Part shown: positions 60,226 to 64,000 of the stretch, piece by piece | Position numbering within the stretch: position 1 is the first letter of the stretch | Layout of the letters: each line of letters starts with the position of its first letter | NCBI GenBank assembly: GCA_003971905.1 | Contig: RSEE01000023.1 | Span: 434,001 to 498,000 of the forward strand | Length of the DNA: 64,000 nucleotides | Source: Moniliella sp. 'wahieum' | Lineage: Eukaryota | Reading direction: 5' to 3' | The notes under the pieces: generated by a model | Seen by the model: only the letters and a program-made list of their open reading frames with translations | Told to the model about the DNA's origin: nothing | The model's database searches: none | Position numbers and translations under genes: made by a program

Positions 60226-63200
60226 TTAGTAGCTGCCAACAAACCGTCAGTACCAAGTCATCGCCACTGTTCCCAGAGAAAGCACATACAGTCGCGCTGC
60301 GATCCCCAAGGCCCCGAGTTCCTGGAACAGAAGTTTGGCCGCGTAGGGATGTAAACTTGCGACACCTCAGTCCGGTTTTTGCACGACCGGCACTCAAACG
60401 TTCCCTTCTTGAGGTTGGCAATCGCCGTCAGGCCACAAATGTCGCAAACGTGCAGACGGTAGGCATCGACGCATCAAACATACGTTCCTTGAGGAACGAC
60501 GCAATGCCATGCGAAATCATACAGTCCGCTCCATCTCTCCGAATCGAAGACCACCTCCGCGCGCACGACCCTCAACCGGCTGACGGGTTAGGATTTGTAC
60601 AGGCCCGCGCGCACGCGAATGGATCTTGTCATCCACCATGTGCTTGAGGCGCTGGTAGTACGTCGGGCCAGGTAGACTTGCGCCTGCAGTTTGCGGCCGG
60701 TGTGGCCATTGTACATCACCTCCAGCCCACGTTTGTGGAAACCAAGCTCACTCAGGAGCGCCGATACGGCCTCGACGGTCAGCTCGGTAAACGGCGTAGC
60801 ATCGCCCTCATTCCCCGACAGCGTGGCTACCTTGGACAAGAGGCATTCCACCAAGTGTCCAATGGTCATACGCGACGGAATGGCGTGCGGGTTGATGATA
60901 ATGTCGGGCGTGATGCCATCAGCTGAAGGGCATGTCCTCTTGCCGGTAAGTAATCCAATCGTACCTTTCTGACCGTGGCGCGAAGCAAACTTGTCACCCG
61001 TCTGGGGCACACGAGTACTGCGCACGCGCACCTTGACAAACCGCTGGCTGTGGTCGTTGCTCACGTCAAAAGCACTTGGTCCACAATCCCATTCTCTGTA
61101 CTCTTGAGCGGCGTCGACACGTCCCGTTTCGTATGCGTCGACACACGCAGCCCAAGCTCCTCGCTGTCCGTCGGCAGCGGCGCCGTCTTGCCAATGATAA
61201 TGTCACCCCCGAAACGCGAGTGCCGGGGGAAATGAGACCGTCCGAGTCAATTTGTCATACGTGCCATGCTTCATACGCAGCGTTGTCTCCCGCGTCGGCT
61301 TCTCAAACATCTCCAACTGGATCACGCCCATCTTCTTTTCCATGTCCGTATAGCAGCGGTAGTAGAGCGAGCGGAACAGACCACGGTCAATCGACGATTG
61401 GTTCATAATCACCGAGTCTCCTGGTTGTACCCCGAGTAGCACAAAATCGCCACAATCGCGTTCTGGACCAGCTGGAAGCTCACGGAAACGAAGGTGCTCC
61501 ATCGAACGCGTCGTAGCCAATGGCTTCTGGGGGTAGTAGAGGATGTTGGCCATGGTGTCCATGCGCATCTGGTAGTTGGTCAGGTACACCCCCATGGCCT
61601 GCTTGCCCATGGCTGACTGGTACGTGTTCGCGGAGATGGTTGTGGTCGGGGAAGGGGATGATACTGGCACAGATACCCAGAATCATGGCGGGATGGATCT
61701 CGCAGTGCGTCCACGTTTTGGGCGCAAAGAATTGCGTCGAGGTCAACCGAGCAGAAGGGTCCATGCCCTCCTCCGTTCCCTCGCCACCCCGACGAGCGTT
61801 GAAACCTTCGGGATCAGCGTTGTAATCGCGCGAGTTCTTCAGGTCCCAGGGGCCCATGCAGATTAGCGCTGTCTCCTCCTCGTCGGCGTCCAGGTACTCG
61901 ATCAGGCCATTCTCACCATATCCTCCCACCGGAAGGGTCTCCCTCATCGTTCATCCCGTTGTTCAACCACTCAGCATGGTACCGCTTGACCCGTAGGACC
62001 GAGTCCTCGACAATAAACAGCGGCCGTAACACGCGCCCACCGTCCGTGTAGAGTCGCAGTTCTTTCTCACGAATGTCATGCACCATGCTCACCTCGTTCG
62101 AAATCTCGTTCCGGCGACGCATCATACGCACGAAGTCCACCAGCATAGTCGGCTCGTCGTGTGTGCCGAGCCAAACGCCATTGACAAATACCTTGGTAGC
62201 GCGATTATTGGCGACTTGCATGTCTCGAGCGAAAGCAACGAGTACTCATGCAAGAATTGGACGATTGGGGACGATGCCGAACCGACCGAAATGGTCGACA
62301 TGAGACTGAGGTTCTTGACCAGACCACAGGCTTGTCCCTCGGGCGTCTCGGCGGGGCAGTTGTGGCTAACGAGGCTGTTGGCAAAGAACGAATGGTTGGC
62401 CGACTCGGTAGTGAATCAAACACCGCCTCCGGCTCCACTTCCTCCACCGACTCGATCGGGCACCAACAAACCCTTCGGCTTCAACCGCTCGCAAGCTCTG
62501 GAACTTCTCCCACGACAGGAAGTTGGTGTAGAAGAGCACCATGACCACTACGCAGCAGCGAGAGAACGCCGTCCCATGATCGAACTGGAAACTGGCTCCG
62601 TCTCGATCCGAGCACGTTTCGCAAAGTGCGCTTGCGACTTGAGGTATTGAACGGGGAGCGCACTCCGCCGCGTCTTAGCTGCACAGTAGCGATAACCCAC
62701 ATTCTTGGAACGCAACCAAGTTGCCTGCCCTTTGTGTAAGGTGCACTTCTTCTCCCTGGGGGGCAGCTTTGACCCCGACATCGGAAAGGAGGCTGCGATT
62801 GTCCAGCCAACTCCGTAACGAGAGGAGCCATGCAAGGCTTCCACCCCGCCCGAGTAGAACGCATGCGGATCGCGTCTCCTTTGGCACCAAAAATACCCGC
62901 AAGGAACTCGCGCTTGACGAGACAGGGGCGTTGAGAGCCAAGGAGGGAGGAGGGTGCCGGCATATAGCAACGAGGAAAGCCTCAGCCGCTGAGGGCAGCA
63001 GATCGGGGCTGCCCTCGATGGCGGGGAGACCGAGGGTACCAAGGTCCGAGTTGACCGCAGCAACATCAGCCGCATCGCTGAGCGTCAACCTCCGTCCCTG
63101 AACACCAGAACGAGCACCAAGCAGGCGGGCAGTAGCGAGAACCTGGGGAAGCGAGAGGTCGGTGTCGACCAAACCACATTGCGAAAGGGCCTCCACCATG

Positions 63201-64000
63201 GAGGGGGCAAGGCCAGCGAGCTGAGTGCGGCAAGACGCAAGGTAAATGGCACGGGGGGGAAGTACTTAGATTGCGGGGAAACGAGGATCATATCTGTGCC
63301 GGCCTGCAGTTGACCGACTTTGGTCCACGAGGGTGAGAGCGGGTTCTGTGCCGCACGAAGAGGATGCTCGGGAGTGGCTTTGATCACCCTTCCGTCCGTC
63401 AAAGTCACCTTAAGAAGACGCTCAGGCATCTTGCGGAACCAATGGTGGATGCCGCTCCGCTCAATCTCCAGCGACGACGGCTTGATCGTCGCCACCTCTT
63501 TGCCGTCGGACAGGTCTGCGATGCGCCCACATCCATTCCGTTGCCCAGTACCACCTCCGTATCCGCCGTGACACAAACCATACCCCAATGGGTGTTGTGC
63601 AGCTGCCGTGGCTTGGCAATCTTTCCATCTCGTCCAATCGGGGTGTTGCACCGCCGCAATGGGACAAGGTGGAGGAGAAGGTGTACCGGTTAAGCACTTG
63701 CGACACACCAGCACGTGCAGACATGAACTTTTTTTGGTCGCCCAGTTGCCCGTCGCAACAGAGTACTTTAGGCCATTGGTAATGGTCGACGCCTTGACAG
63801 CTGGGTAATGTGGAAATCCTTCTTCTCCTCCACACTTTTGGAGATGCGGTAGATATCGCGCGTAAGCTTGCGGAAAAGCATGCGGAAAAGGCCTGCCAAC
63901 AAAGGCCCAGCCATGTCGAGACGCTTCTTGCCGAAGTGGTCACGGTCATCAATTTCGCGCCGCTCGAGGGCAGTGAGTAGGAGACGATGAATCATGTACC
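60226..64000 (-). CDS. RPB2: RNA polymerase II second-largest subunit (5' part outside the window), interrupted by an intein; stop position approximate
   Basis: [108 protein letters not shown]. Confidence 0.97.
62359..63575 (-). mobile_element. Intein (~405 aa) with a central LAGLIDADG-type homing endonuclease domain
   Basis: Block [14 protein letters not shown]; block [19 protein letters not shown] motifs ATARLLG..., [23 protein letters not shown]; blocks [12 protein letters not shown](F)[18 protein letters not shown] followed by extein Cys. Confidence 0.95.

Follow-up and report, generated by a model that had tools for sequence, protein, structure and literature searches.

What becomes of an RPB2 gene whose fork-region motif is split by 1217 bp of further coding sequence, within which the reading frame is itself broken ten times? 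The question is raised by positions 62359-63575, minus strand, of a 64,000-nucleotide stretch of Moniliella sp. 'wahieum' DNA (assembly GCA_003971905.1, contig RSEE01000023.1, positions 434,001 to 498,000), the whole of which is here called the window. The original prediction, made from the letters alone, had placed an RPB2 insert of this length at these coordinates, and reading the minus strand of 62300-63660 in three frames bears it out to the base. The insert is very probably a bona fide full-length class-1 intein of the RPB2-c allele, seated in the fork region of RPB2 (Pfam Rpb2 domain 3), with frame breaks that are errors and an endonuclease that is degenerate.

The junctions carry much of this argument. 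On the N-terminal side the reading frame runs unbroken from a 24-residue stretch of RPB2 into the first 16 residues of the insert, and the junction falls after ...HNTHWGMV, where Cys1 is encoded by TGT at 63575-63573. On the C-terminal side the insert closes with a 19-residue stretch that ends in the terminal Asn (AAC, 62361-62359), and the next codon, TGC at 62358-62356, supplies the Cys+1 that opens the C-extein (read here over its first 17 residues). The layout is thus HWGMV, an insert known at its edges by its first 13 and last 10 residues, and CPAETPEG; removal of the insert restores the conserved motif HWGMV + CPAETPEG, and the Pfam domain RNA_pol_Rpb2_3 is split by it at profile positions 47/45.

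The residues expected of a full-length class-1 intein, as the original prediction had listed them (Cys1, TxxH, HN and Cys+1), could all be located. Nucleophiles are present at both intein position 1 and extein position +1, block B reads TPEH at 63375-63364, and block G reads ...VSHN at 62370-62359. A search with a 93-aa unbroken piece of the intein recovered a close relative from the Logan assemblies, a 1572-aa RPB2 here called P0001, whose unbroken 416-aa intein occupies the same site and is homologous to the window intein from end to end. In an alignment of such inteins (A1), Cys1 and the block B His (H71 of the P0001 intein) are invariant, while the block B Thr (T68) and the terminal Asn are nearly so. 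Twenty of 22 inteins share the penultimate His; the other two, P0024 and P0059, have Ser in its place. The features of the locus, all on the minus strand, are as follows.

63576..64000, minus strand: RPB2 N-extein; the gene runs off the end of the window, with about 260 or more N-terminal residues outside it; the last 12 residues read before the junction end in HWGMV.
62359..63575, minus strand: intein, RPB2-c allele; 1217 bp as assembled, about 408 codons after reading through 10 frame breaks.
63537..63575, minus strand: block A, Cys1 and the 13-residue stretch that it heads; Cys1 is the position invariant in A1.
63364..63375, minus strand: block B, TPEH (TxxH).
62490..63259, minus strand: central LAGLIDADG-type endonuclease domain, judged degenerate; boundaries approximate, transferred from the P0001 model.
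63095..63130, minus strand: LAGLIDADG-like motif 1 (12 residues), with Gln where relatives have the catalytic Asp.
62874..62915, minus strand: LAGLIDADG-like motif 2 (14 residues), with Lys where relatives have the catalytic Asp (GGDG).
62359..62438, minus strand: blocks F and G, VEPEAVF(D) and the 19 residues after it, with the penultimate His and terminal Asn; a contig of public run X1 (record 1, below) crosses the junction and reaches 62378.
60247..62358, minus strand: RPB2 C-extein, starting with Cys+1 and the 16-residue stretch that it opens; first in-frame stop TGA at 60249-60247.

Because all class-1 catalytic positions are present, the standard four-step route is to be expected. Transcription and translation of RPB2 would yield a single precursor of about 1640 aa, in which the Hint domain (blocks A, B, F and G) would promote an N-S acyl shift at Cys1, to be followed by trans-thioesterification to Cys+1 and by cyclisation of the terminal Asn with the aid of the penultimate His. 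A final S-N shift would then join ...HWGMV to CPAETPEG..., the fork motif that RNA polymerase II needs, with an intein of about 408 aa released. Splicing activity is in this sense predicted from the residues, and an essential RPB2, which we take to be single-copy, would have to rely on it.

Frame breaks and the noise of the assembly

The ten frame breaks of the intein invite a different explanation, namely that the gene is a decaying RPB2 pseudogene with real frameshifts, that the intein is a relic, and that a functional RPB2 lies elsewhere. When P0001 is aligned to the window by a frameshift-aware dynamic programme, 28 breaks appear in about 3.7 kb of gene, and the window also holds intact open reading frames (ORFs) of 627 and 689 aa, so the breakage is not uniform along it. 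The breaks do not, however, single out the intein: it has 10 in 1217 bp (8.2/kb), against 18 in the 2481 bp of the exteins (7.3/kb; binomial p = 0.84), as the original prediction had supposed from the indel rate of the neighbouring genes. Single missing bases account for 17 of the 28, and not one in-frame stop occurs in the 1252 frame-corrected codons of intein and exteins together. The essential and unrelated neighbour uL2 (58874-59810, plus strand) is broken likewise, its Pfam L2_C domain being spread over three frames at profile positions 2-30, 26-63 and 59-125. The noise is regional, with about 7 breaks/kb in the RPB2/uL2 stretch at 58874-64000, while the intact ORFs, an RRM protein of 627 aa and an ARM-repeat protein of 689 aa, lie in 19446-24646. 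Homopolymer errors were considered as a source and rejected: the longest run in a 17-nt context averages 2.79 at the 28 breaks and 2.71 at 2000 random places.

Public contigs of three sequencing runs (Logan; whether DNA or RNA is unrecorded) were placed on the window, and those of run X1 supply several of the missing bases. Record 4 of that run covers 63459-63884 (433 nt, 4 other letters) and bridges the N-junction; the bases that it supplies are one at 63526, which falls within the intein, one each at 63659, 63740 and 63800, and CG and A at 63832 and 63846. The C-junction is bridged by record 1, which covers 61984-62378 and adds a C at 62223. These additions match what the protein alignment predicts (63526, 63657, 63740, 63799, a one-codon gap at 63846, and 62225). 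Over the 821 nt that lie under X1 contigs 99 % alike, there are 8 indel differences, every one a base missing from the window, against 6 substitutions, which is the signature of error. No contig covers 62416-63458, save for a 35-nt piece from run X3 that is under 90 % alike.

Given that the break rate is equal in the exteins, that stops are absent and that X1 contigs supply missing bases, the ten breaks of the intein are best taken as errors, in an assembly that is locally noisy and prone to deletions, and not as decay. The pseudogene explanation draws something further from the fact that RPB2 copies could be counted in the window alone, yet exteins that are 92-97 % identical to P0001 are hardly those of a dying gene, and it is very unlikely on balance.

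The X1 contigs also hold sequences that are not those of the window. Record 3, a contig of 1272 nt, is about 85 % alike and falls on 62311-62346 and 63573-63648, joining across the insert; it skips 1226 nt with 9 other letters between, or 1217 nt net, and corresponds to an intein-less RPB2 of another organism. Records 2, 5 and 6 are further RPB2-like variants. With several RPB2-like sequences in one run, X1 is therefore a mixed sample.

A mixed sample makes it conceivable that foreign intein DNA was joined into a fungal RPB2 during assembly, all the more so as the intein-less variant joins across exactly the insert. Against such a chimera, the N-junction (63459-63884) and the C-junction (61984-62378) are bridged by two separate contigs, each 99 % alike, and the independent relative P0001 has the same architecture. 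The GC content of the intein (59.4 %, with 57.2 % in the C-extein) moreover equals that of its host, and an assembly chimera is extremely improbable.

It might also be supposed that the insert is removed from the RNA as a spliceosomal or other intron, with no protein splicing at all, since it is after all an insert in a eukaryotic gene and the kind of X1, DNA or RNA, is unrecorded. But its boundaries are TGT...AAC and not GT...AG, and the nearest GT/AG pair would disrupt the frame of the conserved 13-residue motif. Along its whole length it moreover encodes an intein homologue whose splicing blocks are 83 % conserved, and Rfam gives no match in 60000-64000 at E <= 0.1. An intron is scarcely credible here. 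On the opposite strand, none of the nine plus-strand ORFs over the insert has a Pfam match.

The RPB2-c allele and its endonuclease domain

Between the window and P0001, identity is 135/139 (97 %) in the N-extein and 629/684 (92 %) in the C-extein, and 255/395 (64.6 %) in the intein. Within the intein, identity is 83 % for the Hint parts and 50 % for the endonuclease part, as against 93 % for the exteins; this difference fits selection on splicing.

A search with the P0001 intein returned 21 significant matches, all of them RNA-polymerase subunits: P0001 itself, 14 Coemansia proteins, one from Mycoemilia scoparia, the RPB2 (P0234) and RPC2 (P0233) of Batrachochytrium dendrobatidis, one from Phlyctochytrium arcticum and two others. 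The Coemansia and Mycoemilia matches span both RPB2 and RPC2, and no named basidiomycete is among the 21. For 18 of the 21, both junctions could be confirmed at this site; for P0013 and P0236 only the N-junction could be, and for P0015 only the C-junction. The window intein aligns end to end with same-site inteins of 20 other RNA-polymerase proteins, those of P0001, Coemansia and Batrachochytrium among them, so that the match is no accident, and an exhaustive HMMER search found many further polymerase subunits with inteins at the same point.

The site could in this way be compared with known alleles, as the original prediction had proposed. Goodwin, Butler and Poulter (2006; PMC1635734) list the B. 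dendrobatidis (Bde) RPB2 intein in their Table 1 as allele RPB2-c, 488 aa long, and place its site in the fork domain. In P0234, stretches of 26 and 20 residues mark the two junctions with 488 aa between them (shorter stretches of 18 and 11 residues show the same); the P0001 intein matches it at E 4.7e-57 with 100 % query cover. Because P0234 has both the same insertion point and the size given in that table, the window intein is an RPB2-c allele. It shares with the Bde intein the insertion point (HWGMV/C on the N-terminal side, an 11-residue stretch on the C-terminal side), the order of blocks and a central LAGLIDADG-type domain, at 40 % identity over 397 columns and 54 % in the Hint part. 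The Bde intein differs in having a chytrid and not a basidiomycete host, in its length (488 aa against about 408 aa), in keeping Asp in motif 1, with Asn in motif 2, and in having a 98 % identical copy in RPC2.

The nearest named relatives are the RPB2/RPC2 inteins of Kickxellales (the 14 from Coemansia and that of Mycoemilia scoparia), which occupy the same site, start with the same 10-residue stretch as the window intein, and are 50-57 % identical to it, or 67-70 % in the Hint part. Unlike the window intein they belong to a host phylum, Zoopagomycota, outside the basidiomycetes, measure 392-495 aa, retain GGDG in some cases and occur as copies in two paralogous polymerases. No description of the c-site inteins of Coemansia or Mycoemilia was found in the literature.

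A likeness within single genomes deserves mention beside these relatives. The RPB2 and RPC2 inteins of Coemansia sp. RSA 1933 (P0006/P0007), and likewise those of B. dendrobatidis (P0234/P0233), are 98 % identical while their exteins are only 38-41 % identical, which implies recent homing or gene conversion between the paralogous fork sites. No paper on this within-genome likeness of RPB2 and RPC2 inteins was found.

The structure of the middle part was approached through the P0001 intein, for which an AlphaFold2 model was built from a 26-row alignment (mean pLDDT 88.9, pTM 0.87). Residues 1-105 and 372-416 of the model form the beta-rich Hint part, with a helical domain between. Its best Foldseek matches are TliVMA (7qss, E 7.7e-13), then PhoVMA, PI-PfuI, PI-TkoII and PI-SceI, followed by mini-inteins and Hedgehog Hint domains and then by I-DmoI and I-Tsp061I. 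The two-helix core fold of LAGLIDADG proteins is present in the model, as its matches to PI-PfuI, PI-SceI, I-DmoI and I-Tsp061I indicate, and the ESM Atlas gives LAGLIDADG_3 for the middle part at 0.90, a lead only. The architecture is that of PI-SceI, of other VMA1-type inteins and of archaeal endonuclease inteins (PDB 7qss, 1dq3 and 1vde, at Foldseek E 7.7e-13 to 1e-8 to the P0001 model), a Hint domain with an inserted LAGLIDADG endonuclease; those inteins differ from the window's in their host proteins, in an identity of 10-15 % and in having kept their catalytic acids.

It is in these acids that the domain departs from an active enzyme. Motif 1 ends in ...GVQG in the window and ...LVQG in P0001, and motif 2 in ...GAKG and ...GVSG, where Phlyctochytrium, P0232 and P0024 have ...TDG and ...GGDG. 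The acidic residue that ends each LAGLIDADG motif is thus absent from both motifs of the window (Q, K) and of P0001 (Q, S). Pfam LAGLIDADG profiles match neither the window pieces nor P0001 and P0003 at E <= 0.1, nor P0024, P0059 and P0068 at E <= 0.01, nor P0022 and P0025, and a precomputed PF14528 assignment exists among the same-site relatives only for Phlyctochytrium (P0235). The domain, to judge from the model, keeps its fold but has lost both catalytic acids, which points to loss of endonuclease activity; because the acids are lost in the window and its closest relative alike, the element is probably immobile and vertically inherited within the lineage.

There is some reason to think otherwise, and to suppose that the intein is as described except that its endonuclease is active and still homing in the lineage. 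The fold is retained, an Asp stands two residues past the position expected in motif 2 (GAKGD) and makes residual nuclease activity possible, the sister lineage P0102 (below) is intein-less, so that presence is polymorphic among relatives, and the near-identical RPB2 and RPC2 copies of Coemansia and Batrachochytrium imply recent movement. Set against this are the replacement of both acidic positions in two sequences, the 50 % identity of the endonuclease part beside 93 % in the exteins, and the Pfam result given above. Continued homing seems unlikely, and a degenerate endonuclease in an otherwise intact RPB2-c intein is the better account.

Besides that Asp, several points weigh against this account as a whole. 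The evidence for the fold comes from a model of the relative P0001 and not from the window's own sequence. The window's own pieces lie below the gathering score of Pfam Intein_splicing, the best of them, the N-terminal piece, reaching 24.9 bits where 35.8 are required, an effect of the broken frame; with this profile, whose use the original prediction had suggested, the 64 %-identical P0001 scores 40.5 bits. For nine of the ten intein breaks the verdict of error is by analogy, as no contig extends over their interval and only the break at 63526 is shown directly. X1 may be the window's own sample and so not independent of it. The breaks show no homopolymer enrichment, which leaves plain deletion noise with no recognisable platform signature. 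Finally, only the window was examined for RPB2 copies, and a second copy is possible.

Host lineage, other RPB2 inteins and descent

The original prediction had suspected a smut-lineage host, and the RPB2 sequence does group with Ustilaginomycotina. The N-extein of P0001 is closest to those of Thecaphora frezii and Parajaminaea phylloscopi (77 %), then to those of Tilletia, Ustilago and Sporisorium (75 %). A quick maximum-likelihood tree of 38 RPB2 rows puts the window together with P0001 and P0102 in a clade (support 100) that is sister to the other sampled Ustilaginomycotina, within a clade of 24 rows (support 100). A host from a deep lineage affiliated with Ustilaginomycotina, and so a smut-lineage basidiomycete at the level of subphylum, is supported by these sequence comparisons. 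In P0102 (1120 aa), the nearest other lineage, the fork motif is unbroken, with Rpb2_3 matched over 1-68/68, and there is no intein; the presence of the intein is therefore patchy among near relatives.

The background given in the original prediction, with RPB2 inteins known from early-diverging fungi, Chlamydomonas and large DNA viruses, does not hold as it was put, since Tilletia, Trichosporon asahii and Salmacisia are already on record. Green et al. (2018; PMC5784728) list inteins in DNA-directed RNA polymerase (DdRP) for Ustilaginomycotina (five) and Agaricomycotina (one); the DdRP sheet of their supplement 2 has RPB2 inteins in four Tilletia species, with C-exteins beginning SAMGKQAMG..., and the supplement also lists an RPB2 intein of Trichosporon asahii with the C-extein CMISHG..., while a Melanopsichium intein is given in another polymerase. 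Among the C-extein cells of that supplement none starts with the 20-residue sequence looked for or with CPC, and the Bde row there reads 'no exteins'. Salmacisia buchloeana is described in its genome paper (PMC10849329) as having SbuRPB2i (397 aa) and an RPB2-like intein of 423 aa, between primers bRPB2-7R and bRPB2-7.1R.

The Tilletia inteins and SbuRPB2i resemble the window intein in host subphylum and host protein and are endonuclease-sized, at 397 aa and more. They differ from it in their site, a 13-residue motif about 250 residues downstream, and in their start, CLTADHEVLTR, and are not the same allele. We take the Salmacisia inteins to sit at the Tilletia site. In the window, both that site and the Trichosporon asahii site (GEMERD/CMISHG) are uninterrupted.

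The suggestion that an RPB2 intein would be undescribed in this lineage consequently fails for RPB2 inteins in smuts as such and stands for the RPB2-c allele, which appears to be undescribed in a basidiomycete; only the host lineage appears to be new, the allele itself having been reported from Batrachochytrium in 2006. The literature searched, which does not take in most subscription journals, yielded no account of a c-site intein from either a basidiomycete or Coemansia. If the assignment is right, Basidiomycota would join Chytridiomycota and, on the strength of database entries, Kickxellales as hosts of RPB2-c, and RPB2 would then have three distinct intein sites within Basidiomycota (that of the window, that of Tilletia and Salmacisia, and GEMERD/C of Trichosporon asahii). 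The understanding of the intein mechanism is unchanged by this. There are practical consequences all the same, for gene callers could mistake such an insert for an intron or an error. The site presumably lies within the standard RPB2 '5-7' barcode amplicon, between its DDRDHFG and MGKQAMG motifs, and an intein there would lengthen the amplicon by about 1.2 kb.

How the intein came to be in this lineage bears on the old question of where nuclear inteins come from, as relics of great age that were lost again and again or as newcomers by occasional horizontal transfer, and the locus adds a data point to it. In a tree of 22 intein rows, built by a quick method, the fungal RPB2-c inteins form one clade of 19 rows (support 100), in which the chytrid inteins stand apart from a clade (support 96) of Kickxellales, window and P0001. 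The pair formed by the window and P0001 falls inside the Kickxellales inteins, as sister to Coemansia javaensis (SH-aLRT 91 and 82). An approximately unbiased (AU) test does not reject the tree in which the 13 Kickxellales rows are held together (delta lnL 4.48, p = 0.229), and comparison of intein with extein divergence is confounded by saturation. Horizontal acquisition of the basidiomycete intein from a Kickxellales-like (Coemansia) donor, with the endonuclease dying afterwards, is a tentative idea and a rather doubtful one; it draws on the nested position in the tree, on the intein-less P0102 and on the mobility of the family in Kickxellales and chytrids. Either history, horizontal transfer or vertical descent accompanied by many losses, is possible.

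Gene neighbourhood and the 3' end of RPB2

The rest of the window is an ordinary fungal nuclear region in its gene content. Pfam matches between 315 and 58372 include S6e, S13/S15, L13e, the RRM and ARM-repeat proteins, an SPX-RING protein, a ClpB-like protein (ClpB D2-small), PRELI and an FSH1 serine hydrolase, and 37 of the 49 long ORFs scanned have no Pfam match at 1e-5. Within RPB2 itself, the ORF pieces scanned, which extend down to 60588, show Pfam Rpb2 domains 3 to 6, and from there the frame can be followed through the P0001 alignment as far as the gene's end. Near that end a GTATGT at about 60284-60289 (minus strand) overlaps the ...ARLYV codons, and the tail of P0001 beyond this point looks like read-through. 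A terminal intron near the 3' end is possible, and hence the true C-terminus of the protein is uncertain.

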